Assembly: GCF_036588685.1 (NCBI RefSeq) | Contig: NC_086381.1 | Span: 41,106,001-41,170,000, forward strand | DNA: 64,000 nt | Direction: 5' to 3' | Source: Mytilus trossulus | Lineage: Eukaryota | Part shown: in pieces, positions 2,327 to 52,500 of the stretch | Numbering within the stretch: position 1 is the first letter of the stretch | Layout of the letters: every line of letters starts with the position of its first letter | The notes under the pieces: generated by a model | What the model saw: only the letters and a program-made list of their open reading frames with translations | Databases searched by the model: none | What the model was told of the DNA's origin: nothing | Program-made: the position numbers and the translations under genes

Positions 2327-5300
2327 ATGTTTAAAGTCAAATATAACTACAAAGCCTCCATAGATACAGCCATTAACCTTTCTGTCGGAGATAAGATATC
2401 GAATGTTGAAGATCTTGGTAATGGTTGGTCAATGGGACATAATGTGTCAAGTGGAAAAACAGGAACATTTCCAACTAGTTATATTGCCAAAAACTTGACC
2501 TTCAAAGACAAGGTCAAAAGAATGTCAAGGGTAAGGAAGACCACTGACCAACTAGAGATAATGTATAAAGCCATATCTGCATACCAAGCTGACACAGATA
2601 CAGATATCAACCTTTGCGTTGGAGATACCATATCAAACGTTGAAGATGTCGGTAATGGTTGGTCAATGGGACATAATAAGTCAAGTGGGAAAACAGGAAC
2701 ATTTCCAACTAGTTATATTGCCAAAAACTTGACATTAAAAGACAAGGTCAAAAGAATGTCAATGGCGAAGAAGGCGACTGAAACACTAGAAATTAAGTTG
2801 AAAAACAAGAGTGAAGATACAGAGACTTTGGTTCCTCGGATCAAGGCCAAAATTCCTGATCATGTCTTACAAAGAAGACTTACTCGTGTTCCTGAACATT
2901 CTAATATTGTACAGAACAAAATTTCTAAAATTGTTCCAAAGCCAGTCAAATCCTTTGTCAACAGCAGCCGTGGAGATCACAGGATCGTGAAAGGCATCTT
3001 TGGGATATTTGGAGGTTTTATTGCCTGTGGAATCCTGTTTGTTCTCTTGAGATACAGTAATGAGTATTCTCTACAAATATCTTGCTACATAACAATAGGA
3101 TTTTCCCTCCCTATATGTGCAGCATTAGCCATTTCTACACACATGAGATGTATCTTTTTACTAATGGTTCCCAACCTGTTCACTGGAAAAGGACGAGCTG
3201 TATTCATGTCCATTATATTTGCCATGTTACTTGCTGGTCCCGTAGTAAACATTGTATACAATGCAGAGCAAGCATCGCAATCTATGGCCTGCACCCAGGA
3301 ACTGATCTATAACCAGACTTCCATCCTCAGAGGTCAACTAGAAGAACCAATTAGATTAATAGAAAGGAGAATTTATGAAGGCCTTGTCAAAATGAGGAAC
3401 ATTGCACATTCCATCAAAAATGCTATTGCACCAGTTACTAATGCAGTAAAAGTTTTTGCCGATGGTCTCAACACAGCTAAAAATGCACTAAAAAATGCAG
3501 CTAAGGTATTAGTTTTATTTACTTTGCATCATCTTTGCAGGTTAAAAAAAACCAACAGAATTTGTCTTTGCTTTAATTAACTCAATTTATTTTTTGTAAT
3601 TGATAAACACATTGCATTTTCATAGATATTTTAGTCTAGTGTTTTTTACATTCACAAAAGCAACAGAAAATTTGTATTTCTTTCAGCTCTTGAATTTGAG
3701 ATTCAATGTCACCTATAACACAAAACAAGCCAGAAAACTATAGTATTTCATGAAATAAATAATGGTTCCTTCAGTCTTAATTATATAAAACACAGGCAAA
3801 CTAAGTTTAAATAAATTGTTACCATATTTCTTCTAACTGTTTATATCATTTATCAGAGGATAATTCATTGGAAACATTTTCCTGTATTTAATTCCCCTCC
3901 CGTTTAACTGTATTTCTGTGCTTTCTATCTTTCCTTCCAATTAAATACATTTCCAAAGTTTCTAATTTTCCATCCCTGTTAATTGCATTTCTTAGCTTTC
4001 TATTTCTTCCTCTCCATTACAAGTATTTCAAAGCTTTTGATTTTTTTCCCTTCCTTAGTAGAATAGTTCCCTAGCTTCCTTTTTTTCTCTCCCCCACTCT
4101 ATTACCAGTAAAAGTTCTTTGTCTCCTCATTACCAGTAAAAGTTCTATTTCTGCTCTTTACCAGAAAAGTTCTTTTTCTGCTCTTTACCAGTAAAAGTTC
4201 TTTTTCTGCTCTTTACCAGTAAAAGTTCTATTTCTCCTCATTAACAGTAAAAGTTCTTTTTCTGCTCATTACCAGTGAAAGTTCTTTTTCTGCTCATTAC
4301 CAGTGCAAGTTCTTTTTCTGCTCTTTATCAGTAAAAGTTTTTTTATTGCTCTTTACCAGTAAAAGTTCTTTTTCTGCTCATTACCAGTGAAAGTTCTTTT
4401 TCTGCTCTTTACCAGTGAAAGTTCTTTTTCTGCTCTTTACCAGTGAAAGTTCTTTTTCTGCTCTTTACCAGTAAAAGTTCTTTTTCTGCTCTTTACCAGT
4501 AAAAGTTCTTTTTCTGCTCTTTACCAGTAAAAGTTCTTTTTCGGCTCATTACCAGTGAAAGTTCTTTTTCTGCTCTTTACCATTAAAAGTTCTTTTTCTG
4601 CTCTTTACCAGTAAAAGTTCTTTTTCTGCTCATTACCAGTGAAAGTTCTTTTTCTGCTCTTTACCAGTAAAAGTTCTTTTTCTGCTCTTTACCAGTAAAA
4701 GTTCTTTTTCTGCTCATTACCAGTGAAAGTTCTTTTTCTGCTCATTACCAGTGAAAGTTCTTTTTCTGCTCTTTACCAGTAAAAGTTCTTTTTCTGCTCT
4801 TTACCAGTGAAAGTTCTATTTCTGTTCTTTACCAGTAAAAGTTCTTTTTCTGCTCTTTACCAGTGAAAGTTCTTTTTCTGCTCTTTACCAGTGAAAGTTC
4901 TATTTCTGCTCTTTACCAGTAAAAGTTCTTTTTCTGTTCTTTACCAGTAAAAGTTCTTTTTCTGCTCATTACCAGTAAAAGTTCTATTTCTCCTCATTAC
5001 CAGTAAAAGTTCTTTTTCTGCTCTTTACCAGTGAAAGTTCTTTTTCTGCTCTTTACCAGTAAAAGTTCTTTTTCTGCTCTTTACCAGAAAAGTTCTTTTT
5101 CTGCTCATTACCAGTGAAAGTTCTATTTCTGTTCTTTACCAGTGAAAGTTCTTTTTCTGCTCTTTACCAGTGAAAGTTCTATTTCTGCTCTTTACCAGTG
5201 AAAGTTCTTTTTCTGCTCATTACCAGTGAAAGTTCTATTTCTGTTCTTTACCAGTAAAAGTTCTTTTTCTGCTCTTTACCAGTAAAAGTTCCTTTTCTGC

Positions 5301-7881
5301 TCATAACCAGTAAAAGTTCTTTTTCTGCTCTTTACCAGTAAAAGTTCTTTTTTCTCCTCATTTATCAAATTTGCAACCTATTTATTTTTTCCACTATCAC
5401 ATGTATTCAATGATTTCTTTTTTATTCTCCCATTTTCATATATTTCTACTTTGTTATTGCCTTCATGTTAAATGATTTTTTCTCTTTATAATGATTTTAA
5501 TACTTTGCATTTTCCCTAGGAATGTAGTAGAGGAGTGGAAAAAGCCCAGTTTGAATGTGAGAGGGGAATAAACTATGCTAAAAATAAGTGTGAAGAAGAC
5601 CTGAGAAGGGCAGACCCTTCAAATAAAGTCATCAAATTTGGTAAAGACGTAGCCAGAACTGGGGAAGACGTAGTGAGGAAAATAGAAAGAACTGGGGATA
5701 ACATTGTGAGGTCGCTAGGAAGGATTTTTGGGAAAAAAAGGAAAAGAAGGAGGGCTATGACAGAGGAAGAGAAAAATGCAATAGAGTTAGCTAAACAGCT
5801 GATGGAACAAGAAACACCATTACAAAGATATGGTGATTACCTTAACTCTAACAATGATGAAACAATAACCAATAACACCAGACTGCATAACCAACATGCA
5901 CTGAAAAGGTAGGTTAGAGAATAAACATACAGAGCATGCACTGAAATGGTAGGGATAGATTATACAAATAAATGTACCTTGATCTATAACGTTTTTCTAT
6001 TATAAATTGGTACTTCGATTTGTCTCATTGGAACTCATGCCACATCTTCATATATCTATAATTAACATGCACTGAAATGATAGGTTAGATAAAAAAAAAA
6101 ATCATCAACATGTGGTAAAATGGTAGGAGAATAAACATAAACCCCATGCATGCACTGAAATGGTAAGTTAGAGACAAACATAAGCAGCATGCTCTGAAAA
6201 AGTAAGTTCAAGAGAACAAACATAAACACCATGCACTTAGAGTTTCAATTCAGACAGAATAAACACATATAGGTATGAAGAAAAAAACACTAGTAAACGT
6301 CATGCAACATTTATTCTTTACCCTGAATGAATTTTTTTTCCAATACCCACCAACAAAAGTTGTTTTGATTTAGGGCATTTAAAGGACCAATTTATTAACT
6401 CTGCCACATTGTTTGTACAGAGTTAAGACATTTGCCTGTTGCCTTTATTATATAATTTTACCCCCTCTTTGTTTGGTTTAAGTGTTTTTTAAAGTATGCA
6501 TCAAAGAGCAAAACACAACAAAATGTAAAAAAATAAGAACTTTACTGTACAGTAAATTACAGTACTTCTTTGATTAATGATGGATATTTGTTTCCTTTGT
6601 AGGTCAAGGAGAGGTTTTTTGCATCATTTATGTATTGTTCTAGACATTGGGGCAGTTTGTAAAGTTGTCCAAGTAGGAACGTATGTTGCCTGTACACCTC
6701 TAAAATTCATAGCGCATATCATAGAAGTAGCTAATAATGAGATAAATTCCTTCTTAGATGGGATCACCTCCTTCTTCTCATTCGATTTTGAAGGAGGTTT
6801 TGATGCCGATGGGAAAATCAATTCCTCAAAAACAGCAGCACAAATCATTTCCCAAGTTAAAGCAGACATACAGTCTAGAACTAAATGGATTCTAACAGTA
6901 TCTGGTATAGTCAGTAACGTTCTTGTCATCACTCTATTGTTATTATTTCTTAAGTCAATCTTCTATCTTAAGAAGTTTCTCAGTAAGGATCGTTATGACA
7001 ATATCTACATTTCAAAGGCTTTTAAGACTTACGACCAGCAATGCAAGGCACAGGGAAAACCATCAGTTTTACCGCTGAAGAGAAAAGAATGCAGAAACTA
7101 CGCTGACACTCGGTCACCATGGCTATCATCAAAAGAAATAGATCATGCTAAAACTGGTATTACTAAAATTGGAATTCATATCTTGATAGCTACTGTTATA
7201 ATTTTCTTTGACTATGTTCTTTACTTTGTTTTAAAGCTTATTGATCGCTTTGGTAACCTGAATATAAATATCGGTGGCAACAGTTCCCTGAGTGTATCTG
7301 TAGAGGGCAGTGGATTTATTTCAGCATTTCTGAGAGCGTTCCTAGGCACTGTTGAATTAGATTCTGACTTTGGTGTTGAGTTTAACCTAACAACTTGTAT
7401 CCCAACTCCCAGTAAACCAGATGATGATAATATTTACAAGTTTAGTTTCCTTTACTTCTTTGCATTTGTGTTCCTTATAATGCAGGCTTATGGTTTACGT
7501 TTACGAAGGAAAATTGTCACATTCTTCTATCCAGAGCGAGATATTGAGAGGATAAAATATCTTCATGAGAAAATACGACACCAGAGAAAATCTCTGATGA
7601 ATTGGTTGACCCAGCATGTAATATCTAGAAACAAGCAATTCCATACGGAAAATCGTATATCTTTCCGCGGATGGATGGAATACCGATGTCCAATATTTGC
7701 TAATTGCTTTTGCCCTTGTCTTACATATAAGACATGCATTAGCTGTGAAAATAAGGATGGCGGTAAAATTCGCTTCCATCAATGTGATAAATGTCAATCT
7801 AATTACTGTGAGGAATGTTTTGGAGATATGAATTACATTTGTCTTGTTTGTAAAACTGAAACAAACATATCTAAACCTTAG
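2327..7881 (+). CDS. Gene A1: tandem-SH3 + DC-STAMP domain multi-pass membrane protein with C-terminal RING-like Cys8 domain (DCST1/DCST2/Sneaky-like); join(2327..3505,5520..5908,6603..7881), 948 aa
   Basis: Canonical GT-AG junctions keep frame (AAG|gtatta...ccctag|GAA, phase 0; AG|gtaggt...ttgtag|G, phase 2). Two SH3 motifs (GD.I.NV...GW..G....GKTGTFPTSYI). DC-STAMP-family motifs RC..LL.VP.LF.GKGR, GP..NI..N, S..C..EL, DRYDNIYI, LPL, LRRKI..FFYPERD.ERI. C-terminal CxxC...CxxC....CxxC.......CxxC. Confidence 0.9.
4100..5362 (+). repeat. 28-bp minisatellite (~45 copies) in A1 intron
   Basis: Unit ctttaccagt[a/g]aaagttctttttctgct. Confidence 0.95.
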
Positions 7882-8082
7882 TCTAATACATGTATATAGC
7901 AACATTCTGTCATGAATGCAGATCTTGAAGTGTAAATAATAAATATAATTTTTATAAACCTGTTATATTTTTTAACAAAAAATGTACTTTGAAAAATAAA
8001 AATTTGTAGAGAAATTGTTCTTTCTCTTTTAATAATAGCAAACCAATAGTACAATTAACTACCAGACAGTGCATTTAATCAA

Positions 8083-8246
8083 GAAATTATTCTTTCATGC
8101 CATGCTCTATGCTAATTTTAACATGGGTAGGCATTATATTTGTTAATATCTTAAAACTGAGTGTTAGTGAGGTATTAAATGTTTACAAATATAATGCATA
8201 CCCATGTTAAAATGAGCATAAAGCATGGCATGATAGAATTATTTCC
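8083..8246. repeat. Fold-back inverted repeat (~60-bp arms) downstream of A1
   Basis: tcatgccatgctctatgctaattttaacatgggtaggcattatatttg pairs with caaatataatgcatacccatgttaaaatgagcataaagcatggcatga. Confidence 0.75.
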
Positions 8247-9780
8247 ATTCTAAAAGGAATATTTTGAACTTCTGTACTTCGAAGCGGCCCTAAAGAAGTC
8301 ATTCGAAATGTCGCCATTTTATTTTGATGAACAAAAACAGTTTAGGACAATCAGCAGTTCATCAATAAAAAAAGAACAAAAACATTTTAAACTTACTTTT
8401 AGAATGTTTTAATTTAATTTCCTAGCGAGCAACACCAACAAAAATGTCCATTTTGATATCTGGCATTTTTCAAAATTCATATGACGTTGCAATTTCAATT
8501 GTGACGTCAATCATGTGCAGCCAGCCCATGTTCTATTCAATTAGAACATGGCTTTGTACCCAAAGCTAAAGAAGAACGTCATATTAGAACTCAATTTGAA
8601 ACATACCAACTTACCAAACAATAGACACTGTATTTGACCAATTAATAAGGGTGAGAGGATGGGACAAAAACACAAAATCAAAATATTCTTTAGACAGTTT
8701 TCAACCTGCATTCTTATAATCTCATTGGACATAATATCATATAAAAGATGAAGTATGATTGCCAATGAGACAAATATCCAACAAAAACCAAATGATTAAG
8801 ATGTCAACAACCATAGATCACCAGTTAGCCTTCAACAATGAGCAAAACTCATTCAGCAGAGTTTGCCTAAAAAAAAACATATTGATAAAATGTGAATTTA
8901 ATCAATATAATGAAAGATGTTCTGAGATTCTATCAGACAGAGCGTATAGTTATGCTGATTTTGTAGATCAAATTACCACTTCATAGGTCAGTGTGAGTTT
9001 GGTTGGTTTTCTAAGAATTGATAAATTTTCTAATCTGATTCTTTATCTCATTTCCTGGGAAGAATTTAAGGGAAAAGAGCCATTTCCTACAGGCAAAGCA
9101 GTTGCGGTTTCAGTTTGTAATCTGGATTTGTTTTCTCAATTCATTTATGACTTTTGAACAGCTGTTTACTACTGGTGCCTTTATCTATTTCTATTTCCAT
9201 GTTATTTGGTAATGCAGCAGAAGATTTATTTTCTCTTTTATTTGGGGTTTTTATCCTCTGAACCACAAATAAGAGACATTTTATTTTTAAAGAAAAAGGT
9301 ATTCTGTGATGCATTGTGGGTAATACTTTTAGCAGAATACATCAAAACTTTTCAATATCCTGACAATCACCTAACAAAAAAGGAAAACACTTTATGTAAA
9401 TTTTACGCATTGGAAGTGCATTTAACTTCATCAGGAGTGCACAATGCCATAGATTTAAGAGAATATATTTCCTAAACAATGGAAATTCAGCCAGTGGCGT
9501 GACATTATTTTCATTTTAGGTACCAAAACAAAATCTCCCATAATTCTGGATAAGTTTTGAAACAGCTTATTGGTAGATTTTGCCAAGTGCCAACAGGAGT
9601 GATGGAAGTACATTTAGATTGCTAAATACAGGTCTCCTCAAAAGTTGATGCTAATGTCCTTGAATGTACTGATTGCATGGCACTCATCCTCATATTTTAT
9701 TGCATAGATTAACTTTGTCGTATTTGGCACAACATTTTGGATTTTGGATCCTCAATGCTCTTCAACTTTGAACTTGTTTG

Positions 9781-10020
9781 GGCCACACTTAAAAATATTT
9801 TGGTTTGCCCAAAGGTTGAGACAGTGGGAGGTAGGTAGGTATTTCTTTTTTTTCTTCTTCAAAAAAAGAAATTGAAGTATGATATCAGATGTTTATTAGT
9901 CTTCATGCCTATTTGATTGAAAAAAAAATCTTCAAATCAGGACAATAAAAGAATTTGAGTAGGCAGCTTTTTTCTGGGTAGGTAGCGTTTGGGCAAACAA
10001 ACCTATTACTTATTATGGCC
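9781..10020. mobile_element. MITE-like insert inside the retrozyme-like repeat
   Basis: ggcca...tggcc ends with subterminal inverted gtttgcccaaa / tttgggcaaac. Confidence 0.55.
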
Positions 10021-10049
10021 TTGGCTTTATAAATATTTTGTTGATATGA

Positions 10050-10093
10050 GCGTCACTGATGAGTCTTATGTAGACAAAACGCACGACTGGTGT
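10050..10093 (+). ncRNA. Degenerate type I hammerhead ribozyme within a retrozyme-like dispersed repeat (~9700..10130)
   Basis: Helix I GCGTCA/TGGTGT; core CTGATGA; helix II GTCT-tatgt-AGAC; AAAAC in place of GAAAC; GAC in place of the GTC cleavage triplet. Predicted inactive. Confidence 0.7.
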
Positions 10094-12381: not shown

Positions 12382-12840
12382 ACAAGAATGTGTCCCCAGT
12401 ACACAGATGCCCCATCCACACTATCATTTTCTATGTTTAGTGGACCGTGAAAATGGGGGAAAACCTCCAATTTGGCATTAAAACTAGAAATATCATATCA
12501 TAGGGAACGTATAGTACTTTTCGATTTTTGATTTAACTTCAACTTCATCAAAAACTACCTTGACCAAAAACTTTAAGCTAAAACGAAAAAAGAGAAGAAC
12601 GAACAGACGTTCAAACAAGAAAACATAATAGATATAGGAAGATGTGGTGTGATTGCCATTGAGACAACTCTCCATCCAAATTACATTTTATAAAAGAAAA
12701 CCATTAAAGGTCAATGTACAGCCTTCAACACGGAGCCTTGGCTCACACCGAACAAAAAGCTATAAAGGGCCCCAAAATTACTAGTGCAAAACATGATTCA
12801 AATGGGAAAACCAACGGTCTAGTTCATAATGGGGCATAAA
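12382..12840 (+). mobile_element. Family 1 element interrupted by another dispersed repeat (~12630-12820)
   Basis: Same 5' end and core as 1..448; the terminal ggggcataaa resumes at ~12830. Confidence 0.65.
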
Positions 12841-14199
12841 AACAAAAACAATACAAGTTTATAAATTTTCGGTGGCATAATCAAATGACCAAGAAATAGA
12901 TTTGCACAGATTCAAATTCAATGGTATTTAATAATCTCACCACATACATACAAGTATAAACACAAGATAATATTAAATACACAATATAAAAATCTAGAAT
13001 GTATATGCCATTCTTAAAAGAACTATGGGAGCTAGATTATTATATACAATTTCTCACAATCTATCTGTTTCACAATCAAATGACCAGGAAATAGATATAA
13101 ACAGCTTTGTTTATAGGGAATGGCTCTTTTCCTTTTAAGTCTTCCTCAGAAAATGAGATAATGTTCCAAATATTTGTCCATTTTCTAGAAAAATAATTCA
13201 ACAAACACTCAAATTTTCTTTGAAAAATGAGATTATAACAGATCATAAAATTTCTCCTAGAAAACAACCCTACTCAGGACCGACATATTAATAAATAACT
13301 CCATAAAAAAAGTTTAGTATCAGCATAACTTCATGTGCCTTACTAGATTTTAAAATAAATCCATTATAAAATTTGTGTTTAATAAACACAAAAGTTTCAC
13401 ATTTTGTCCCCCAATTTCAAGCACTCTTGGGCAAACTAATCAGTAAGAGTTTTGGTCATAGTTGAAAGTATAGGTAACAGTGACGTACAGTTGTTACAAG
13501 CATATCATTTGGTCTTTGGTGGATTAAGTTGCTTCATTTATAAACTAACCCCATTCCCTAATCTTAACAATATCCTGTGAGTTGACAAGAATCTATGCCC
13601 AAAAACTGTCCAAGCTGATAAAAATTGGTATTTAATAGATTTTATGTACTAACTACAACCTGAAAAACAACCATTATAAAAAACTAAATTTACTTTTATG
13701 GATAATTTATGAGCTTATGAAGAATCACTATTTTTTGCATGAGGTCTTGGAATTTAAATGAAGACAAAGCTAGTTGTATGTAAAGTATAATAAGATCCTA
13801 ATAACACATCTATGAAACCATTCAAAAGAAATTTCTATCAATTAGCTATGTGGAATAAGTTTCTAAGAGAACATTTATTTGCTTATACTTTTCAATTGAG
13901 TGCTGATTTAAATTTCTGTTCATCACAGGTGACTGTCACTCCAGGACTTTTAACTAGCATTACAATAATTAATAATCTTAAACAAAACTGTAATAGCAAC
14001 CGTGCCTTGGAATTCATATCTTCCAGGAGAGTAAGTATGCTTTATTTTATCACATTGTACTTTGACTGTATTATGACTGTTGTTTATCTAAGCATATTGT
14101 TAAAATTTCTGACCAGTTGAATAGTTTGATTGGATAAATAAATTCAAGGTTGGGTCAGAATTGTGAATGAACGGAGAGAAACACTTATCAATTATTGTA

Positions 14200-15536: not shown

Positions 15537-18500
15537 ATGACACATGTGGAAAAAAAAGCAGGAAAATCAAATCTTCGATTTAAAGAGACAAAGGCTGAAG
15601 ACCCACCCTCATACAACGATGCCCTTAGATTTCCTGACAAACTATTCAAAAGTGACCGCCATACATTTACCTGCCTAAAGGCTATATTTGGTATCTTCTG
15701 TGGATTTTTTACTGGTGGATTACTGTTTGTTCTGCTAATCTACAGTTTTGGTTTTGCCTTGGATATAGCTGGGTATATATCTATTGGAGTGACAGCCCTA
15801 GCGTGTCTAGGTCTAGCACTATCTGTCCATGTTCGCTGTATCGTGGTATTGATGATTCCTAGTCTATTTACTGGAAGAGGAAGGGTAGCCATTTTGGCAG
15901 TTATATTTGGACTCCTATTATCAGGACCAATCAAAAACATCTCTATAAATACTTCAGAAGTATCAAGAAGTATGGCCTGTAGTACTGAACTCTTTCAGAA
16001 TCAGTCGCACACTCTCAGACAGCAGTTAAATGTACCACTAGAGCAAATTACAAATGCTCTGGACAAACACGCCAAAGATATAAAGGAAATTGGAAAACAA
16101 ATAGATAGAGCAATAAAACCAATTTATGATGCTCTTGTTGCTGTTAAAAATGGTATCGAGAAAGTGAGCAATGCACTGGATACAGCTTCACAGGTAAAAA
16201 AGTAGTCAATGGTGCACTTGATTTAGGTTCACAGGTAAACTAGTAGTCAGTGGTGCACCTGATATAGGTTCACCGGTAAAATAGTAGTCAATGGTGCACT
16301 TGATATAGGTTCACAGGTAAAATAGTAGTCAGTGGTGCACTTGATAAAGGTTCACCGGTAAAATAGTAGTCAGTGGTGCACTTGATATAGGTTCACAGGT
16401 AAAATAGTAGTCAGTGGTGCACTTGATAAAGCTTCACAAGTAAACTAGTAGTCAGTGGTGCACTTGATATAGGTTCACAGGTAAAATTATAAGTCAGTGG
16501 TGCACTTGATATAGCTTCACAGGTGAACTAGTAGTCAGTGGTGCACTTGATATAGGTTCACGGGTAAAATAGTAGTCAGTGCTGCACTTGATATAGGTTC
16601 ACAGGTAAAATAGTAGTCAGTGCTGCACTGGTTATAGGTTCACAGGTAAAATAGTAGTCTGTGGTGCACTTGATTCAGCTTCACAGGTCAAATAATTAGT
16701 CAGTGGTGTACTTGATACAGCTTCACAGGTAAACTAGTAGTCAGTGGTGCACTAGATACAGCTTCACAGGTCAAATAATTACCATAGTCAGTGGTGTACT
16801 TGATACAGCTTCACAGGTGAAATAGCAATTCAATGCGCTGAATTTATTCAGATTCACAGGGAAAATAGTTGGATATATTCACTTGTACACAACACCTGAA
16901 TGTATATGAATGTATACAGAGGCTGATGAGTATGAGAAAATATTTATGTTCTTAAATGATGGAACATATGTTGAATGTAACTAAATATGTTAGCATGTTC
17001 AGCTGTGATTTATAAATGTTAATTCTGATGAGAAAAAGTATCATTTAAAGGTAATATATGCATACCAATAATTGTGGATAATTCAGAAATGATTGTTTAA
17101 TATCTACAAGATTGGGAATAATTATTTCCCATATTCACGATACCTGTTCTTATAATAATTGTAAATACCAATTTACCAATCTGGCATGAGTAATGGATAG
17201 AAATAAAATAATATTTTTGGGTCAGTAAAGATATCATATAATATTTTTTCCAATCGGAAAAATAATTATTACATAAGATTTTTTTTCCATTTTTTACATT
17301 TTAATGAGTGATATGTCAAAATGATATACCAGTCATAAGATGAAATTTCTACCATAATGTTTATTCAAAAGATAATTTATTATGTAATGACATATCCTAT
17401 TGGGCTTTGTTTTATGTGATAAAAATTCTGAGGCATTGGTCCTTTTATTATGCTGATGGAATAAATATCCCATAACAATAATTCCAATTGGAACTTTTGT
17501 AACATAATAAATCTTTGGAATAAATATAATGACGGAACTTATATTCTGTGACATACCTTTAGTGAGAGATTTCTTATGTTTATAATTTATATATTTACAG
17601 GAGTGTGACAGAATGATGAACAAAGTGTATGATGACTGTAGAAGAGAACTCAACAAGGCTTACAGTAAATGTAGGGAGACACTTAGAAAGGCTTTAAGGT
17701 ATAAATATCATCAATCGTCCATTATGTCTGACATCAGAATCATTTGATTATTAGTTTAAACAAACAAAAGATAAAAACCGTGATTCAGCTGCTGCTTGAA
17801 ATATTGGCAAATTAACCTAGGCAGAAAAGTTAACACTGAAAATTGGTAATTATTGTAATTGACCATTGTGTAGAGGAGATTTTTTTTTTTGGCGGGGGGA
17901 TGGGCAGGGCCTCAAAATAGTTGTCAAACTTATAAGTTCTGATGGTAATGCAACTTTAAAGAAAATCTTATCCTACCCATTGTTCTATCACAAGTGGTTT
18001 CTATCAAACTAAATGAAGCAAAAATTTAAAATTGCTTTAATTTCACAGTAATTAGTATACTCTTTTTCAGATATGTTCCAGGATTAGATCAGTCTCTAGT
18101 ATACTATTTTTCAGATATGTTCCAGGATAAGATCAGTATCTAGTATACTATTTTTCAGATATGTTCCAGGATTAGATCAGTATCTAGTATACTCTTTTTC
18201 AGATATGTTCCAGGATTAGATCAGTAACTAGTATATTCTTTTACAGATATGTTCCAGAATTAGATCAGTAACTAGTATACTCTTTTACAGATATGTTCCA
18301 GAATTAGATCAGTTTCTAGTATACTCTTCATTAGATATGTTCAAGGATTAGATCAGTAACTAGTATACTCTTTTACAGATATGTTCCCGAATTAGATCAG
18401 TAATTAGTATTATCTTTTACAGATATGTTCCAGGATTAGATCAGTAACTTGTATACTCTTTTACATATATGTTCCAGGATAAGATCAGTAACTATTATAC

Positions 18501-21500
18501 TCTTTTACAGATATGTTCCAGTATGAGATCAGTAACTAGTATACTCTTTTACAGATATAATCCAGGATTAGATCAGTAACTACTATACTCTTTTACAGAT
18601 ATGTTCCAGAATTAGATCAGTAACTAGTCTACTCTTTTACAGATATGTTCCAGGATTAGATCAGTAACTAGAATACTCTTTTACAGATATGATCCAGGAT
18701 TAGATCAGTAACTAGTTTACTCTTTTACATTTATGTTCCAGGATTAGATCAGTAACTTGTATGCTCTTTTACAGATATGTTCCAGGATTAGATCAGTAAC
18801 TAGTATACTCTTTATTAGATATGTTCCAGAATTAGATCAGTAACTAGTATACTCTTTAACAGATATGTTCCAGTATTAGACCAGTAACTAGTATACTCTT
18901 CTACATATATGTTCCAGGATTAGATCAGTAACTAGTATACGCTTTATCAGATCTGTTCCAGAATTAGATCAGAAACTTGTATACTCTTTTACAGATATGT
19001 TACAGGATTAGATCAATAACTAGTATACTCTTTAACAGATATGTTCCAGGATTAGATCAGTAACTAGTATACTCTTTTACAGATATGTTCCAGAATTAGA
19101 TCAGTAACTAGTATACTCTTTTACAGATATGTTCCAGGATTCTATCAGTAACTAGTATACTCTTTATTAGATATGTTCCAGAATTATATCAGTAACTAGT
19201 ATACTCTTTAACAGATGTGTTCCAGGATTAGATCAGTAAATATTAGACATTTTTACATAAATGTTCCAGGATAAGATTGGTAACTAGTATACTCTTTATC
19301 AGATATGTTCCAGAATTAGATCAGAAACTTGTATACTCTTTTACAGATATGTTCCAGGATTAGATAAGTAACTAGATATAGTATACTCTTTTACAGATAT
19401 GTTCCAGGATTAGATAAGTAACTAGATATAGTATACTCTTTTACAGATATGTTCCAGGATTAGATCAGTAACTAGTATACTCTTTAACAGATATGTTCCA
19501 GGATTAGATCAGTAACTAGTATACTCTTTATCAGATATGTTCCATAATTAGATAAGAAACTTGTATACTCTTTTACAGATATGTTCCAGGATTAGATCAG
19601 TAACTAGAATACTCTTTTACAGAAATTGTCCAGGATTAGATCAGTAACTAGTATACATGTACTCTTTTACAGATATGTTCCAGGATTAGATCAGTAACTA
19701 GTATACTCTTTTACAGATATGTTCCAGGATTAGATCAGTAACTAGTATAGTCTTTTACAGATATGTTCCAGGATTCTATCAGTAACTAGAATACTCTTTA
19801 TTACATACATGTGAACTTCCCGACGGGAGTACAAAACTCCCGTTTTCAGGGGTCTCCTCCCGTCCTCCCGTTTAGGAGAAAAAACTCCCGTGTATGAAAT
19901 ATTTCATGAATGAAAATTTTCAGACGCCATATTTGATCATTTCTTACTACTGTTCAGGTGTAATTGACACCTGTGTTAAATTTTACCTGTACATCAAAGA
20001 AGATGTATAATTATATGGCCTCACTTGACAGCTTGGGTGTCATACATACTGGTAATCAACGATGTTTACCTCTGGCTAACTGCCGTTGTGTTAAAAAAAA
20101 AACGATGTGTATTGGGAATATTGAAATACATTTTTGTTACTTCCCTTTGTTTTATCCTGTTTTCAGTTATTTTGCTTTTAAAAATGTAAATTGTAAAAAG
20201 ACTATAAATGATTAATATTTTCATCAAATAATCATAAAAGGATGTTGATTAAATGAATTTAAATGTTTTGGGACAAATAAAAAAATATAAATTTATAAAT
20301 TAATTTTGCAATTTAGACCTCCTTTCAAGAATGAAATTGGAGTTTATATATTAAATCTGTTTAAAATGTCTTATATTTACATTGAGCTAGAAATAGCAGA
20401 ACAATATACACAGATTAAGTCTTTTTTAAGTTTTCTTCAAATATGACTTTAATAATGCTGAAAAGCCATGCAGTACCACTGTTAGTAGTGTTTGTTATTT
20501 TTATAAATCATTTATGATATTGCAAATATACATTAAGAGCTTATTTCTTTCTTATTTGTCTATACATTTACCAATGATAAGGAGATGGAGACATGAATAA
20601 AAATCTATACAGATAAGATGAATAAATCCAATGATTAATTTGCAAGCAGTGAACAATCATTTATCAAAAACAAAACAAAACAAGAAACAGATTCTTCTTA
20701 ATATTTTAATTTATTCAAATAGAAAGGCAATAAGGGTACATGTACTATAAACATATAACAATTTGATGGATATTTGAAGATAAAACACAATTTCTACATC
20801 ATATGGTTACATTTACGACAAAATTTATGTCGATAAAAAACCTCCTGATCTGAGTCCTAATCTCCTGACCAAAATTTCCAAATCTCCTGATCTGAGTTTC
20901 ACAGTCCATCACATGTATGTTATTATATATGTTCCAGAATTAGATCAATAACTAGTATACTCTTTAACAGATATGTTCCAGGATTAGATCAGTAACTATT
21001 AGACATTTTTACATAAATGTTCCATGATAAGATCATTAACTAGTATACTCTTTATCAGATATGTTCCAGAATTAGATCAGAATCTTGTATACTCTTTTAC
21101 AGATATGTTCCAGGATTAGATCAGTAACTAGTACTCTTTTACAGATATGTTCCAAGATTAGATCAGTAACTAGATATAGTATACTCTTTTACAGATATGT
21201 TCCAGGATTAGATCTGTAACTAGTATATTCTTTTACAGATATGTTCCAGGATTAGATCAGTAACTAGTATACTCTTTTACATATATGTTCCAGGATTGAA
21301 ACAGTAACTAGTATACTCTTTTTCAGGTGGGTTCCAGGTTTAGATATCACAGCAGTCTGTAATATCCTTAATATACAAAAGGTCTGTTTTATACTCAAAC
21401 CATCTTTTGTATGTTCACCAGTCAAAGCAATTGATAAGGCAGCTGAGAAACTTGCGGATTTTGCTGTCAAACTGGTCAAAGATATCGATAAATGGTTTCA

Positions 21501-22575
21501 ATTCAACGTTATCAAGAAGTCTGAGAGTGGCCAGGTGTATAATGCTACCAAAACAGCTAAAGAATTCATTGCTGAGATTGAGAAAGCTCTGACCGACAAG
21601 AAAATAACATTTACTTACATCGTGGAAATTATGAGCAAACTTTTAGCACTTTCCCTACTGTTGCTCCTAACCCAATCATTTTTTTATTTGAAAAATTATC
21701 TGGCCAAGGATGAATTTGATAACATTTACATTACTTCACAGTTTAAGGGTTATGATTCTGAAACACGAGAGAAAGGACAACAGGGCGTGTTACCTCTTCA
21801 AAAGAAGGAAAAGAAACTATACACAGATAGTACATCCTTCATGATGTCTCCAAAAGAAAGAAGTCAGAGTTTGATGGGCATATCTCAGCTCCTCCTACAC
21901 GTATTACTGAGTGCTCTCATTGTGTTCCTTAATTACGTACTGTTCTATATATTGTTCCTTGTGAACAGGTATGGCCAGGTGAATGTAGATGTCACTGGAA
22001 AAAGTAAAATAAACCTAAAGGTCAAAGGAGGACAAATGGCTGCCTTCATAAACAGTTTTATAAATGACATTAACATTGAAAACACATACGAGGCTAGTTA
22101 TAATACATCCGCATGCCTGCCAAGTCCTACGCCTCCTGATGCTACGGACATTCCAGTTCTTTGTTCAGCTTATGCAGCTGCTCTACTCCTGGTTTTACTG
22201 CAAGCTTATGGAGCAAGATACAATCGTAAAATATGTGCCTTCTACTATCCTGAACAGGAAATGGAACGTATCACTTTTCTGCAGAAGAAAATCCTTTACA
22301 ACCGCAAGGGAAGGCACACATTCATTAAACAACATGTTACTTCAATGAAGAATCAAAAAGTTGCTGAGCAGAGAATGTCTGTGAAACAACTGTTATCTGC
22401 AATATGTCCCTGCTTTGAAGTGGAAAAAACAGATCTAAAATTCTGTATGTACTGTGGAGCTAACCAAGGGTCCAGTCATACATTACAGGAATGTAAAAAC
22501 ACAAACTGCAAATCAACTTATTGTTCTGAATGTTTTAATGATTGTGGACATAGTTGTCCTATCTGTAGAAAATAA
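15537..22575 (+). CDS. Gene B1: DC-STAMP domain protein with N-terminal PPxY motif and C-terminal RING-like domain; join(15537..16193,17601..17698,21327..22575), 667 aa
   Basis: Frame-preserving junctions CAG|gtaaaa...ttacag|GAG and AG|gtataa...tttcag|G. The 98-nt middle exon (ECDRMMNKVYDDCRRELNKAYSKC) is missed by the ORF track. Motifs GRGR, GPIKNI, SMACSTEL, DEFDNIYI, FYYPEQEMERI, terminal Cys8. Intron phases (0,2) match type A genes. Confidence 0.9.
16165..16868 (+). repeat. 41-bp minisatellite (~17 copies) derived from the B1 exon/intron donor junction
   Basis: Unit gtagtcagtggtgcacttgatataggttcacaggtaaaata. The first unit overlaps the exon end (atgcactggatacagcttcacag|gtaaaa). Confidence 0.95.
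18045..21345 (+). repeat. 44-bp minisatellite (~48 copies) derived from the B1 acceptor junction, interrupted by a 1.1-kb TIR element
   Basis: Unit agtatactcttttacagatatgttccaggattagatcagtaact. The last unit is the real acceptor (tactctttttcag|gtgggttccaggtttagat). Confidence 0.95.
19804..20919. mobile_element. Non-autonomous DNA transposon (1.1 kb) inserted into the 44-bp array
   Basis: TIRs catacatgtga / tcacatgtatg; flanking ttatta duplication; subterminal ctcccg/ctcctga repeats. Confidence 0.8.
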
Positions 22576-28606: not shown

Positions 28607-31600
28607 ATGTATAAAGTCATATTTACATACCCGGCCTCCACGGATACAGACATAAACCTTTGTGTGGGAGATACTGTATCAAACGTTGAAGATGTTGGTA
28701 ACGGCTGGTCAATGGGACATAATAGGTCCACTGGTAAAACTGGCACATTTCCAACTAATTTCATTGTTAGGAAATTGTCATTCAAAGACAAGGTCAAAAG
28801 AATGTCAATGGCAAAAAAGATGACTGACGAATTAGTCCTCATGTCCAAAAACAAGAGTGAAAGTACAGAAACTTTGGTTCCACGAAACAAGGCCAAAATT
28901 CCTGATGATATCTTACAAAAAAGACTTTCTCATGTTCCTGGACATTCAAATATCATAGGTGTCAGACTTCCTAAACTGGTTCCAAAGCCAGTCAAATCCT
29001 TTGGAAAGAACTTTGTCAACAGCAGCCGTGGAGATCACAGGATCGTAAAAGGTATCTTTGGGATATTTGGAGGTTTTATTGCCTGTGGAATCCTGTTTGT
29101 TCTCTTGAGATACAGTTATGAGTATTCTCTACAAATCTCTTGCTACATAACACTAGGATTTTCCCTCCCTATATGTGCAGCATTAGCCGTGTCTACACAC
29201 ATGAGATGTATCTTTTTACTAATGGTTCCCAACTTGTTCACTGGAAAGGGACGGACTGTATTCATGTCCATTATATTCGCCCTGTTACTTGCTGGTCCTG
29301 TAGTAAACATTGTCTACAATGCAGAGCAAGCATCGCAATCAATGGCCTGCACCCAGGAACTGATCTATAACCAGACTTCCATTCTTAGAGGTCAACTAGA
29401 AGAACCAATCAGATTAATAGAGAGGAGAATTTATGAAGGCCTTGTCAAACTGAGGAACATTGCAAATTCTATCAAAAATACTATAGCACCAGTTACTGAT
29501 GCAGTAAAGGCTTTTGCTAATGGTCTCAATGCAGCTAAAAATGCACTAGAAAATGCAGCAAAGGTAACTTTTATTTACTTTAGTGAACCTCATTGATTGG
29601 AGGATCTTTGCATTTTAAGAAAAAGAGAAATGGAATAGTATTTGTCTATTTTTTATTCACAAAAAGCTTGTTAGGAAGTAGAACTGATAAACTTTTAAAC
29701 ATATATATAAATATAAGCATTGTGTATAAGATTTATAGCATTTGTTAGCTGAACTTTGGTCAGAGAATGGAAATGAAAAATAAATCAGCATTTTTTCCAT
29801 TTGTACAGAAGCATGACTGAATTTATCTTGGCTATGATAGGGGAATACAAATCATAACTTTAAGATACCAAAATATCAGCAAATGTATATAAAAAAACAT
29901 ATCATTATCATTTTTAAGATAACATCTAAGTTCTATCATATGATGACATACACTTCTTTTTTTTCCCCCCTTTCAAAACTTTCACTTTACAATTTATTTC
30001 CTAGGAATGTAGTAATGGTATTAATACTGCCCAGTCTAAATGTGAGACAGGAATAAACAATGCTAAATCTGAGTGTGAAAAAGCTCTCAAATCTGTTGAC
30101 CCTACAAAGGATATTATCAACTTTGGGAAAGATGTAGCCAATACTGGGGAATCAATAGGAAATGGTTTGCGTAGATTGTTTGGGAAAAAAAGGAAAAGAA
30201 GGAGAGCTATTACAAAGGAAGAGAAAAATGCAATAGAGTTAGCTAAACAGTTGATTGGGCAAGAATCACCCTTACAAAGATATGATATCTATCTAAAATC
30301 TAAGAATACTGAGATGATAACCAATAACACCCGACTGCATAAACAGCATTCACTGAAAAGGTAGGTTAGTCTTGAGAATAAACATAAACCACAATCCCTT
30401 ATAAAGTAGATTAGATAATAAACATGAACAACATACACTGAAATGTTAAGTTAGAATTACACAAGATTGCAACTAAAATGATACAAACAATGAAAAAATG
30501 GCTTCAAAGTTTGCTAAACAAAATAAAAATGTCTCATAATATAAGTTGAATAACAGTATTTCAGTTTAATAATGATGAACATTTAATTTTCCTTGTAGGT
30601 CAAAAAGAGGTGTTTTGCATAAGATATGTGTGGTTCTTGACATTGATGATGTTTGTAAAGTTGTCCAAGTAGCCAATGTACTTGTCTGTAAGCCTATAAA
30701 ATTCATATCCACTGTCATAGAAGGTGCAAATACTGCAGTTAATTCTGTCCTTAATGAAATCATCTCCTTCTTTTATTTTGACTTTGATGGAGATATTAGT
30801 GCAAATGGGAATATCAATTCCTCAAAAACAGCAGCACAAATCATATCCCAAGTTAAAGATGACATACAGTCTAGAACTAAATGGATTCTAACAGTATCTG
30901 GTATAGTCAGTAACATTCTCGTCATCACTCTATTGTTATTATTTCTAAAGTCAATCTTCTATCTTAAGAAGTTTCTCAGTAAGGATCGCTATGACAATAT
31001 CTACATTTCAAAGGCTTTTAAGACTTACGACCAGCAATGCAAGGCACAGGGAAAACCATCAGTTTTACCGCTGAAGAGAAAAGAATGCAGAAACTACGCT
31101 GACACTCGGTCACCATGGCTATCATCGAAAGAAATAGATCATGCTAAAACTGGTATTACTAAAATTGGAATTCATCTCTTGATAGCAACTGTAATCATTT
31201 TCTTTGACTATGTTCTTTATTTTGTTCTGATGCTTATTGATCGCTATGGTAATCTGAATATAAAAATCGGTGGCAACAGTTACCTGAATGTATCAGTAGA
31301 GGGCAGTGGATTTATTTCAGCATTTTTAAGAGCTTTCCTAAGCACTATCGAATTGGATTCAGACTTTGGAGTAGAGTTTAACCTAACAACTTGTATCCCA
31401 ACTCCCAGTAAACCAGATGACAATAATATCTACAAGTTTAGTTTTCTTTATTTCTTTGCATTTGTGTTCCTTATAATGCAGGCTTATGGTTTACGTTTAC
31501 GAAGGAAAATTGTCACATTCTTCTATCCAGAGCGAGATATTGAGAGGATAAAATATCTTTATGAGAAAATACGACACCAGAGAAAATCTCTGTTGAATTG

Positions 31601-31880
31601 GTTGACCCAGCATGTCATATCTCGGAACAAGCAATTCCATATGGAAAATCGTATAACTTTCCGTGGATGGATGGAATACCGATGTCCCATATTTGCTAAA
31701 TATTTCTGCCCTTGTCTACCTAAATATAACAGATGTATCAGCTGTGAAAATAAGGAAGATGGGAGAATTCGCTTCCATCAATGTGATAAATGTCAATCTA
31801 ATTACTGTGAGGAATGTTTTGGAGATATGAAATACATTTGTCTCATTTGTAATGCTAAATCAAACATGTCAAAAAGGTGA
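28607..31880 (+). CDS. Gene A2: single-SH3 + DC-STAMP domain protein, paralog of A1; join(28607..29563,30005..30360,30599..31880), 864 aa
   Basis: Same exon structure and phases as A1 (AAG|gtaact...tcctag|GAA; AG|gtaggt...ttgtag|G). High similarity to A1 throughout; one SH3 unit only. Confidence 0.9.
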
Positions 31881-48076: not shown

Positions 48077-49902
48077 ATGACACATGCAGACAAAACACCA
48101 GGGAGTTCAAAACTTGAATCCATCAAGAGAAAGTCTGATGACCCACCCTCATACAATGATGCCATGAGATTTCCTGACAATTACCACAATACATTTCCTG
48201 ACAAACTATTTAAAAGTGAACGCCATACATTTACCTGCCTGAAGGCTATATTTGGTATCTTTTCTGGAATATTGACTGGTGGAATACTGTTTGTTCTGCT
48301 AATCTACAGTTTTGGTTTTGCCTTGGATATAGCTGGATATATATCTATTGGAGTGACAGCCTTAGCATGTCTAGGTCTAGCACTATCTGTCCATGTCCGC
48401 TGTATCGTGGTACTGATGATTCCTAGTCTATTTACTGGTAGAGGAAGGGTAGCCATCTTGGCAGTTATATTGGGACTCCTGTTATCAAGACCAATCAAAA
48501 ACATCTCTATAAATACTTCAGAAGTATCCAGAAGTATGGCCTGTAGTACCGAACTCTTTCAGAATCAGTCACACTCTCTCAGACAACAGCTCCAGGTACC
48601 AATAGAGCAGATTAAAGTAGCCTTGGGTAAACAGGCAGAGGATATAAAGATGTTAGGAACAGCAATAGATAAAGCCATAGAACCAATTTATAATGCTCTT
48701 GTTGCTGTTAAAAAAGGTGTCAAGTTAGTGAGTGGTGCATTGGATACTGCTTCACAGGTAAAATATTAAGCCAGTGTTGCAGTGTATTCAGATTCACAAG
48801 TAAAATTTAAGAACCTTAGTGAGCAGGCTCATATACCCCACATCCCCACATTGTCATTGGAGAAATTAAATAAGTGTAAGGAAAAAAATTGTATAAGAAA
48901 AAATATTGAATAATAATTTCCTGTCAATATCCACATCTACATGCATAGTATGTCCTTATTATTTACAAAATTTCATGAAATTCTGTTGTGTGGTTTCAGA
49001 GTAGTTGAGATGACAAACTGATGCAGAAGTACATTGAAGCAAATAAGTTCAAAGGGGTGTAACTCCTAGAAAAAAAAATGAATCAAAATTTGTTGTCGAA
49101 ATGCACATCTACGTAGTATGTCCTTTATATACAAAGTTTCATGAAATTCTGTTGTGTGGTTTGAGAGGAGTTGAGGTGACAAACTGTGGAAGTAGTACCT
49201 TAAAGCAAATAAGTTCAAACAGGTGTAACTCCTAGAAAAAAAATTGAATCATAATTTCCTGTTGGTATGCACATCTACATAGTATGTCCTTATTATCTGA
49301 AAAGGTTTCGTGAAATTCTGTTGTGTGGTTTGAGAGGAGTTGCGATGACAATCTGTTGCAGTAGTTCATTAAAGTAAATAAGTTCAAAGGGGCGTTACTC
49401 CTAGAAAAAAAATTGAATCATAATTTCCCGTCGATATGCACAACTACATAGTATGTCCTTGTTATCTGAAAAGGTCTCGTGAAAATCTGTTGTGTGGTTT
49501 GAGAGGAGTTGCGATGACAAACTGTTGCAGTAGTACACTAAAGTAAATAAGTTCAAAGGGGCATAACTCCTAGAAAAAAAATTGAATCGCAATTTCCCTT
49601 CAACATGCACAACTACATAGTATGTCCTTATTAAATGAAAAGGTTTCGTGAAATTCTGTTGTGTGGTTTGAGAGGAGTTGCGATGACAAACTGTTGCAGT
49701 AGTACGTTAAAGTAAATAAGTTCAAAGGGAAAAAAATTGAATTGCAATTTCCCGTCGATATGCACAACTACATAGTATGTCAATATTATCTGAAAAGGTT
49801 TCGTGAAATTCTGTTGAGTGGTTTGAGAGGAGTTGCGATGACAAGAAACAGGACTGACGGACGGACGGACTGACGGACGGACGGACGGACGGACTGACGG
49901 AT

Positions 49903-49956
<54 letters not shown>

Positions 49957-52500
49957 AAGTGGAAACCTGACTGCTTCACATGTAGGAGAATTATTCAGTG
50001 ATAGCCCCAGAAAAGTTATAATAGTAGATTGTGATTTTGGAAATATCATCTTGGACTTCAACATTCTTGGTATTTTAACATTTTGTACATTCATCCTGCA
50101 GTGTAAATAACAATATGTATTCAGATAAAGGCAACAGTAGTATACCGCTGTTCAAAACTCATAAATCCATGGACAAAAAACAAAAACAGGGTAACAAACT
50201 AAAACCGAGGGAAACGCATTAAATATAAGAGGAGAACTGTCACGGAATAGAAGTTCCTTCATAACATAAGTTCCAAATGGAAAAACTTTTCTGGAATATT
50301 ATTTCCACAGGAATAAATATTATAGTAGATGTTCCTAACGGAATAAATAGTATAGAATATTTGTTCCGACAGGTACAGTTATTATGACATTGTTTATAAT
50401 AAAGTTTCCACTGGAACTTCTGTTCGGTGGAACAAATATACGTTGACAGAACAACGACACAACACCGAAAGGCAACACACACAGAAACTGACCAAGCATC
50501 AGACAAAATACAACGAGAATAACAAATATAACAACAAAACCAAATACATGAATTTGGGATAGACAAGTACCGTGCCACGTCTTATCTTAATAAGTCAGAC
50601 ACATATGTATTTATTCCTACTCTATATATTTACAGGAGTGTGATAGAGTAATGAATGGTGTGTATTATGACTGTGTAAGAGAGCTCAACAAAGCATACAG
50701 TGCTTGTAAGAATACACTTAATAATGTTAAGAAGTAAGTATCATTAGTAGTACCTCATGTCTCACAGAGCTTTGATTTATTTCTCTATTGTTGAGAGTTA
50801 AACTAAGGTCATTTTCAAACTTTCCTGAACTTAGTTTCTACTTTTGTATGTATTGTATCAATATATTTTCCTACAATATTTGACCAAACTTTCATCATTT
50901 TAACTATTTTCAATATCTATATTTGCATCAGTAAATATTTTTGGTGCATAGATTAATTTCTACTTAATTCACGATGAATCAAAACAAATCTCCCCCTCTT
51001 TTTAGAAGAAAATATTCATATTCTTTTCAGTGGTAAACTCAATAGTTTTCAATGGTAAACTCAATAGTTCTCAATGGTAAACTCAATAGTTCTCAATGGT
51101 AAACTCAATAGTTCTTAATGGTAAACTCAATAGTTCTCAAGTGCACTCAATAGTTCAAAACAATGTGATTAGCCTGTATAAAAAGTTTATACATTGATTT
51201 TGGGAAAATAACAATCAGCAAAAATTACAGTAGCCATCACATTTTTTGCAGGTATGTTCCAGGATTAGATTTAACACCTATCTGTAAAATCCTTGATATA
51301 GAACAGGTCTGTGTTATAGTCAAACCATCTTTTGTATGTTCACCAGTCAAAACGCTTGATAATGCAGCTGAGAAACTAGCAGAATCTGCTGTCAATCTGG
51401 TCAAGGAAGTCAATAAATGGTTTCAACTGAACATCATCAAGAAGTCCCAGATTGACAATGTTTATAATGCTTCTAAAACAGCTAAAGAATTGATAGCGGA
51501 GGTTGATGCCGCCCTAACAGACAAGAAAATAACATTCACTTACATCGTGGAAATTATGAGCAAACTTTTAGCTCTTTCCCTTCTGTTGTTACTAACCCAA
51601 TCATTTTTTTATTTGAAAAATTATCTAGCCAAGGATGAATTTGATAACATTTACATTACTTCCCAGTTTAAGGGTTATGATTCTGAAACACGCGAGAAAG
51701 GACAACAGGGTGTGTTACCTCTTCAAAAGAAGGAAAAGAAACTATACACAGATAGTACATCCTTCATGATGTCTCCAAAAGAAAGAAGTCAGAGTTTGAT
51801 GGGCATATCTCAGCTCCTCCTACATGTGTTACTGAGTGCTCTGATTGTGTTCCTTAACTATGTACTGTTCTATATATTGTTTCTTGTAAACAGGTATGGC
51901 CAGGTGAATGTAGAGGTCACTGGAAAAAGTAAAATAAACCTAAAGGTCAAAGGAGGACAAATGGCTGCCTTAATCAACAATTTTATAAATAACATTAACA
52001 TTGAAAACACGTACGAGGCTAGTTATAATACAACTGTATGCCTGCCAAGTCCTACGCCTCCTGATGCTACGGACATTCCAGTTCTTTGTTCAGCTTACGC
52101 TGCTGCTTTACTCCTGGTTTTACTGCAAGCCTACGGAGCAAGATACAATCGTAAAATATGTGCCTTCTACTATCCTGAACAGGAAATGGAACGTATCGCT
52201 TTTCTGCAGAAGAAAATCATTTACAACCGCAAGGGAAGGCACACTTTTATTAAACAGCATGTTACTTCATTAAAAAAACAAAAGATAGCTGAGCAGAAAA
52301 TGTCTGTTAAACAAATGTTATCTGGGATATGTCCCTGCTTTAAAGTGGAACAAACAGATCTAAAATTCTGTATGAACTGTGGAGCTAACCAAGGGTCTAG
52401 TCGTACATTACAAGCATGTAAGAACACGGACTGTGATGCAACTTATTGTTTGGAATGTTTTTATGATTTTGAACGTGTTTGTCCTATCTGTAGAAAATAA
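48077..52500 (+). CDS. Gene B2: DC-STAMP domain protein, paralog of B1; join(48077..48757,50636..50733,51252..52500), 675 aa
   Basis: Junctions CAG|gtaaaa...ttacag|GAG and AA|gtaagt...ttgcag|G keep frame. Exons 2 and 3 have the same lengths as in B1 (98 and 1249 nt). The ORF-track start at 47951 lies in the upstream intron. Confidence 0.9.
48812..49952 (+). mobile_element. Helentron/pearl-like element, family 4, with 5-6 tandem ~178-bp cores, in B2 intron
   Basis: Repeated gaaattctgttgtgtggtttgagaggagttg cores, (gacg)n microsatellite, terminal hairpin ttataccc.ccgc..gcg.ggggtataa. Confidence 0.75.
50238..50448. mobile_element. Inverted copy of the TGTCA...TGACA element with 4-bp TSD, in B2 intron
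   Basis: gaac|tgtcacgg...cgttgaca|gaac; reverse complement of 41201..41396. Confidence 0.8.
51030..51156 (+). repeat. 22-bp minisatellite (~5-6 copies) in B2 intron
   Basis: Unit tggtaaactcaatagttctcaa. Confidence 0.85.

Follow-up and report, generated by a model that had tools for sequence, protein, structure and literature searches.

What keeps the membrane core of a duplicated gene alike while the adjoining cysteine-rich ectodomain diverges, and what such a protein might recognise, are the questions raised by a locus of Mytilus trossulus at which two linked genes, here called A and B, are each present twice. The reading favoured here, to which we give a probability of roughly 55%, is that A and B, both multi-pass proteins, belong to a third branch of the DC-STAMP family, found in invertebrates, and would act jointly in a surface complex for fusion or recognition; that the A-B pair was duplicated and its membrane cores then re-homogenised by gene conversion; and that the predicted outer tip keeps diverging and, in the pair-1 copy, would be selected for new binding specificity.

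The window (the whole stretch of DNA analysed, 64,000 nucleotides) contains four three-exon genes, all on the + strand and lying head to tail in the order A1, B1 (pair 1), A2, B2 (pair 2), as detailed in Table 1. All four have GT-AG introns and open frames, and their spliced products match annotated M. trossulus proteins letter for letter (4/4), that of B2 (675 aa) being the C-terminal 675 aa of P0038. Sequence of the locus was present in 24 public runs from 16 studies among the matches listed, none recorded as RNA; of the four runs aligned to 5400-16165, three had the A1 intron 5909-6602 joined out GT..AG. In one run (X1), a contig connects 13566-14087 with 15457 and carries 53 differences, representing either an upstream B exon or a diverged genomic copy. 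Non-coding blocks of ~70% identity with terminal GT donors lie upstream of A (1409-1582 / 27501-27676) and of B (14198-14403 / 47311-47520), and are likely to be 5′ UTR exons. Misassembly of two alleles into A1-B1 and A2-B2 was ruled out, both classes being found adjoining in M. edulis and M. galloprovincialis too.

Table 1. Positions of genes, exons, mosaic segments and minisatellites in the window.
Feature	Position	Strand	Description
A1, whole	2327-7881	+	948 aa; product = P0043 / XP_063397929
A1 coding exon 1	2327..3505	+	two SH3 domains, linker, TM1-3, start of ectodomain stalk
A1 coding exon 2	5520..5908	+	variable ectodomain, three Cys, A-specific insert with polybasic furin-like borders
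A1 exon 3, variable Cys knob and return helix (aa 524-597)	6603..6825	+	A2 differs at 58/213 nt (6603-6815)
A1 exon 3, likely conversion tract (TM4 and cytosolic loop)	6826..7179	+	dS 0.07-0.08 against A2
A1 exon 3, rest: TM5, second extracellular loop, TM6, Cys-rich RING-like tail	7180..7881	+	
B1, whole	15537-22575	+	667 aa; product = P0001 / XP_063397920
B1 coding exon 1	15537..16193	+	TM1-3, stalk; variable from 16008
B1 coding exon 2	17601..17698	+	variable, three Cys
B1 coding exon 3	21327..22575	+	variable to 21585; homogenised core 21586-22341; RING-like tail
A2	28607..31880	+	exons 28607-29563, 30005-30360, 30599-31880; 864 aa, one SH3; product = P0052
B2	48077..52500	+	exons 48077-48757, 50636-50733, 51252-52500; 675 aa from the ATG at 48077
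41-bp minisatellite from B1 exon 1 end and splice donor	16172..16825	+	12 CAG|GT sites in 16172-16870
Two 44-bp minisatellite arrays from B1 exon-3 acceptor and exon start	18046-19799, 20927-21345	+	

Between A1 and A2, the mosaic described by the original prediction was recovered, with corrections. Replacements are dense in the variable block at 6603-6815 (30599-30811 in A2), with 58 of 213 nt differing and 55% amino acid identity over 71 codons, and the cysteines there (C533, C542 and C553) are all kept; the next ~360 nt are nearly identical (nine differences in 6816-7175; 8/354 in 6826-7179, five of them silent). Introns, in A and B alike, are almost wholly unalignable, with 0/441, 91/238, 54/1878 and 0/518 nt of the copy-2 introns aligning, at 70-78% identity where remnants do align. 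The near-identical block of A is short: divergence is back at 7180-7497 (dS 0.33), 7180-7881 mostly retains the old divergence between paralogs, and the Zn tail is 77% identical. Silent divergence in A is uneven, by permutation (p 0.003-0.056 across six statistics) and by maximum likelihood (dS 0.08 versus 0.35-0.54, p = 3e-7, for regions picked after viewing the data).

The expectation that B1 and B2 repeat this pattern held for the protein and fell short at silent sites. The predicted tip is variable (66% identity over aa 158-338, encoded by 16008-16193, 17601-17698 and 21327-21585) and is followed by a core identical at 97/97 residues (aa 339-435, 21586-21876), but those 97 codons carry 11 synonymous differences (dS about 0.2), and identity falls to 74% in the tail. 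Unlike in A, silent-site heterogeneity along B was not significant (permutation p 0.08-0.51; maximum likelihood dS 0.18-0.41, p = 0.15).

Homologs from M. edulis, M. galloprovincialis, M. californianus and M. coruscus were added, and these allow a test of conversion by region-specific trees that is impossible from the window alone. In the B core (aa 339-590), copies from the edulis complex group together (support 100/99) and grouping by paralog is rejected (AU p = 0.0065), whereas in the B ectodomain paralogs group (98/99) and grouping by species is rejected (AU p = 0.022); these are protein-level trees of 11/16 B sequences, fragments and near-duplicates being excluded. Quartet sites agree, with 10 species-type and 0 paralog-type sites in the core against 6 and 13 in the ectodomain (p = 0.0004). 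In A, A1 and A2 differ from one another less than A2 differs from M. californianus in TM1-3 (5 vs 15 differences) and in the first core block around TM4 (2 vs 7), and more in the ectodomain (80 vs 30) and tail (20 vs 12). Within the tract at 6826-7179, A1 and A2 agree against M. californianus/M. coruscus at six sites, with the opposite at one. It is in these comparisons with other Mytilus species that conversion of the core in both subunits, as originally proposed, emerges most clearly, and on the sequence evidence we regard it as well supported. In B it would be a deep-level event, provided that one M. californianus sequence (P0005) is a B1-class ortholog, and the duplication of the A-B pair would predate the split from M. 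californianus. Conversion is likely to be ongoing, since species-restricted residues are shared across copies (in A, E672; in B, R485 and M564) and 2/4 pair-2 A alleles of M. edulis and M. galloprovincialis carry the tract T749/S751/S753 belonging to pair-1 A of those species.

Escape of the ectodomain from conversion needs no selection, because its codons adjoin unalignable introns, which would help to shelter these exons. Informative ectodomain codons lie almost entirely within 250 nt of an exon edge (202/211 in A, 137/146 in B), so that protein topology and intron geometry are inseparable. A neutral account, in which conversion homogenises the interiors of long exons, whose homology is held high by purifying selection, the tip escapes only through its position beside satellite-filled introns and the pair-1 B tip drifts after duplication under relaxed constraint, draws on this arrangement, on the large minisatellites in the B1 introns, on pairwise dN/dS below 1 and on the divergence of the N-terminus and tail, which likewise lie at exon ends. 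Silent divergence, however, is alike near and far from exon edges (44/268 vs 54/422 in A; 41/260 vs 34/283 in B; p = 0.22 for both pairs), seven cysteines and the reading frames are kept even in fast lineages, and the B2-class ectodomain varies no more than the protein outside it, indicating that the B ectodomain is not inherently loose. We consider geometry with relaxed constraint unlikely, compared with conversion of the core beside a tip under selection.

The intervals between coding exons and genes are themselves rich in repeats. The 44-bp arrays contain 31 exact decoy acceptors, all of which reach stops within 30 codons; their acceptor unit encodes a B2-like exon start, YVPGLD, where the actual B1 exon now starts WVPGLD, so the array preserves the older sequence. 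Further tandem arrays occupy 4097-5352 (28 bp x45, A1 intron 1) and 26168-27146 (88 bp x11, upstream of A2). Between A2 and B2, a Copia-type LTR retrotransposon (36147-40976; RVT_2 and integrase, with a frame break near the end of RNase H) sits inside a 61-bp satellite array (34584-45752), and its insertion is recent, the 141-bp LTRs being 99.3% identical.

Diversifying selection over the whole ectodomain, the other half of the original prediction, was not borne out by comparison of paralogs. In A, dN/dS was 0.48 (0.33-0.70) by counting and 0.38 by maximum likelihood (below 1 at p = 5e-6); in B it was 0.61 (0.39-0.96) and 0.55 (below 1 at p = 0.014). Acceleration was instead confined to one class of B. 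Between M. trossulus and M. edulis, a species pair about 3.5 million years old (PMC7045717), 34/181 ectodomain residues differ in the B1 class and 7/181 in the B2 class (p = 0.001), a roughly five-fold excess, with the rest of the protein alike in the two classes (19/486 vs 22/493); between M. californianus and M. coruscus, the B2-class ectodomain differs at 3/181 residues, against 25/474 elsewhere. Minimum replacement load per nonsynonymous site was 0.10 in the B1 class versus 0.017 in the B2 class. Seven of seven ectodomain cysteines are invariant in eight B and nine A sequences. A ectodomains diverge alike in both classes (23/245 and 23/234), both of them at two to three times the rate seen elsewhere in the protein. 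Asymmetry between classes is thus a feature of B only; the two subunits therefore evolve in parallel as far as the mosaic is concerned, but not in acceleration. Rough dN/dS estimates from contig pieces disagree, at about 1 for A (17 differences, at least 13 of them replacements) and about 0.3 for B (19 differences, at least nine replacements if the piece is of beta type, a third pair described below). Two scans of metagenome contigs for ortholog DNA gave 198 and 347 pattern matches, none of which was confirmed. Positive selection on the B1-class ectodomain is plausible from these protein-level comparisons.

The architecture of the proteins suggests where this variation is displayed. Pfam DC_STAMP (PF07782) scored above cut-off in 4/4 genes (E 3e-52 to 1e-50), and hydropathy, AlphaFold2 (AF2) helices and tail cysteines agree on a multi-pass topology with a C-terminal cysteine-rich RING-like tail, the cysteines of which are nearly invariant among 62-72 homologs. 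The A proteins carry SH3 domains in addition, two in A1 and one in A2; the A1 module is tandemly duplicated (2327-2793, 83% nt identity), a duplication common to all pair-1 A proteins (937-950 aa) and missing from pair-2 A. The AF2 model of B1 has a long helical stalk rising from TM3 (helices 113-213 and 218-251), a cysteine knob (260-281) and a return to TM4 (helices 286-308 and 329-378), with mean pLDDT 75.6 and only 47-80 in the variable part. From this helix layout the variable region of B1, aa 158-338, is predicted to be the membrane-distal tip. A Foldseek search for a solved structural relative gave 0 matches at E<=0.001, and a profile search yielded only weak matches of the helical stalk to influenza HA2 (best E 5e-4), which are taken as coiled-coil composition. 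A prediction of the A1+B1 complex (aa 285-826 with 110-552, run without alignments) scored 0.01 and gave no answer.

A has in addition an insert of ~56 residues between RKRR (467) and RSRR/RSKR (523), present in M. californianus too and missing from B; in A1 its borders are KKRKRRR at 5733-5753 and RSRR across the exon 2/3 junction (5907-6612). Judging by motif, furin would clip these 56 residues from A. The second polybasic site is followed by a hydrophobic stretch that starts with glycine (aa 527-551), and a Patella homolog likewise has two polybasic furin-like sites.

A third, beta pair lies outside the window in M. trossulus, encoding a 937-aa A and a 675-aa B (P0045, P0033). Annotation gives its A and B a single name, as isoforms X1 and X2, which hints at a shared exon or read-through between the two. 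Three pair-1 lineages, alpha-trossulus, alpha-edulis and beta, are about equidistant in the ectodomain (30-39/181 residues in B; 21-27 of 234-245 in A), and beta differs between M. trossulus and one M. galloprovincialis assembly by only 3+6 residues in A and 3+5 in B, fewer than the 10+9 (19) that separate the alpha A of M. edulis and M. galloprovincialis. Among the clusters listed, alpha A only was found in both M. edulis assemblies and in one M. galloprovincialis assembly, and beta A only in another M. galloprovincialis assembly. At 6634-6714, beta-type variants occur in three runs coded as different organisms, of which X1 and X2 carry beta plus another type and X16 beta only; a further piece from X2 is just two differences away from B1 across 15987-16165, compared with a minimum of 10 for the edulis reference.

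These observations could be accommodated if pair 1 were a balanced two-gene specificity locus, its three lineages being old trans-species alleles, retained in the M. trossulus assembly as apparent tandem copies, with a role in self/non-self or compatibility recognition. Against this, alpha and beta are both annotated on one chromosome-size M. trossulus contig, tandem copy-number variation and recent introgression, both common in Mytilus, give the same pattern (PMC7653742, PMC7045717), the cluster lists may be incomplete, contigs show presence rather than absence, and the beta pair lies beyond the window. Presence-absence variation is widespread in M. galloprovincialis (PMC7653742); the term DC-STAMP was not found in two supplementary files of that paper. 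The beta pair may be an alternative haplotype, with alleles, copy-number variation and introgression all fitting, and a balanced locus is a doubtful explanation, somewhat less probable than drift of the tip. An extension of it, that pair 1 is a polymorphic fusion-compatibility (allorecognition) locus at which the furin-primed hypervariable tip of a DC-STAMP-family heteromer gates cell fusion or acceptance, with ancient haplotypes that Mytilus species share through introgression or balancing selection, making the locus a candidate determinant of compatibility with grafts or transmissible cancers, is more speculative still, and we hold it to be quite improbable.

The placement of A and B in the family bears on their function. 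A search of 1.84 billion representatives returned 1158 matches, and trees were built from 154, 51 and 27 sequences (the 51-sequence tree being a quick version). Clades of DCST1 (100/100) and DCST2 (100/99) leave out A and B. Identification of A with DCST1 and B with DCST2 was tried and rejected: AU tests, which covered this pairing alone, gave p = 0.002 for A-type joined to DCST1 and p = 0.0002 for B-type joined to DCST2. Oyster, Tegillarca and Lingula have separate DCST1-clade genes. A and B fall in a third group, made up of proteins from molluscs, brachiopods and echinoderms, a number of which contain SH3; this group is weakly supported as a whole and strongly in its molluscan part (99); the A/B split is common to scallop and predates the divergence of scallop and mussel (support 96-99). 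Vertebrate OC-STAMP-like sequences are on the third-group side in the best tree (93/97), as a long branch and with alternatives at AU p 0.17-0.18, only two or three vertebrate sequences of DC-STAMP/OC-STAMP type being in the trees. The third group therefore leans, without significance, towards vertebrate DC-STAMP/OC-STAMP, and the best tree matches the published split of DCSTAMP/OCSTAMP from DCST1/DCST2 (PMC8989947).

The sperm fusion factors DCST1 and DCST2 (SPE-49/Sneaky, SPE-42) share with the mussel proteins the DC_STAMP domain, about six TM segments, a long cysteine-containing ectodomain, the C-terminal cysteine-rich RING-like tail and an arrangement as neighbouring genes, but mammalian DCST1 is only 24-26% identical to them, and the mouse genes are divergently transcribed (PMC8055269) where A and B all run head to tail on the + strand. 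Also unlike DCST1/DCST2, the mussel genes have three coding exons, A has SH3 and the polybasic-flanked insert, and the pair is duplicated with mosaic evolution. Vertebrate DC-STAMP and OC-STAMP, of the same family and thought to pair, lie on the same side of the split from DCST1+DCST2 in the best tree and are 22-27% identical to the mussel proteins, A differing in its longer ectodomain and SH3. The closest relatives are SH3-DC-STAMP proteins automatically annotated as ‘DCST2-like’, a clade directly taking in scallop, Pinctada, Mya, Dreissena, Potamilus, Mactra, Haliotis and Patella and, more loosely, Lingula and Lytechinus; in an Atlas cluster of 80 proteins, 69% have SH3. Mytilus differs from these in its two or three tandem A-B pairs, in conversion and in the fast tip.

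Concerted evolution with divergent specificity domains is known in tandem immune or gamete genes, in which, as here, a homogenised core lies beside a divergent extracellular part; the present case has this in two linked subunit genes. In the literature searched, with most subscription literature outside its scope, no function for SH3-DC-STAMP proteins, no paper on the A-B locus or the SH3-fused group and no report of such a mosaic in a fusion-protein family were found; Fig. S1A of PMC8989947 may include invertebrate sequences of this kind.

How would a complex of A and B work? The two would pair through conserved membrane and stalk-base regions and show the variable tip to another cell, the SH3 domains and RING-like tail linking the complex to ubiquitin signalling or the cytoskeleton; through conversion the cores would stay interchangeable as the tips specialise. 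DCST1 and DCST2 bind each other, in a predicted 260-Å mace-shaped heterodimer (PMC8989947, PMC11052572), and members of the family work as pairs, DC-STAMP and OC-STAMP driving osteoclast and giant-cell (phagocyte) fusion (PMC8989947). By analogy with either pair, A and B probably form a heteromer. The original prediction of recognition proteins is likewise an inference.

Sperm and egg are one setting in which such a complex might act, with M7 lysin as the model for gamete-recognition divergence. A DCST-like gamete complex, its tip diverging by sexual selection or by reinforcement in hybrid zones, would account for rapid divergence between sister species and for the DCST1/2-like architecture (Pfam Dcst2 and RING-like domains are precomputed for the matched proteins), and in animals as far apart as worm and mouse DCST1/2 function in fertilisation (PMC8989947, PMC8055269). 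A and B, however, are not DCST1/2 orthologs, other invertebrates, as noted above, have separate DCST1-clade genes, and a beta pair nearly identical in two species fits poorly with species-specific isolation. A contig named DCST2, which may or may not correspond to one of the A/B genes, is moreover up 3.2-fold in M. galloprovincialis hemocytes (PMC7023338). Because of this contig and the non-orthology to sperm genes, action in somatic cells such as hemocytes is mildly favoured over gametes, and gamete recognition appears an unlikely explanation, about on a par with drift beside the introns. A surface complex with a converted core and a selected tip is retained as the preferred reading.

A and B would thus define an overlooked third invertebrate branch of the family, labelled DCST2-like in databases, which may be the invertebrate counterpart of the regulators of osteoclast and giant-cell fusion. 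If selection is unconfirmed, the locus is a case of ordinary partial concerted evolution. DC-STAMP-family proteins are needed for cell fusion, and variation that spares the core and is heaped in the tip points to the tip as the specificity surface, for which the natural tip variants are ready-made test material. Should the pair-1 types prove to be alleles, they would represent a candidate compatibility locus in mussels, among which both hybrid zones and transmissible cancers occur.
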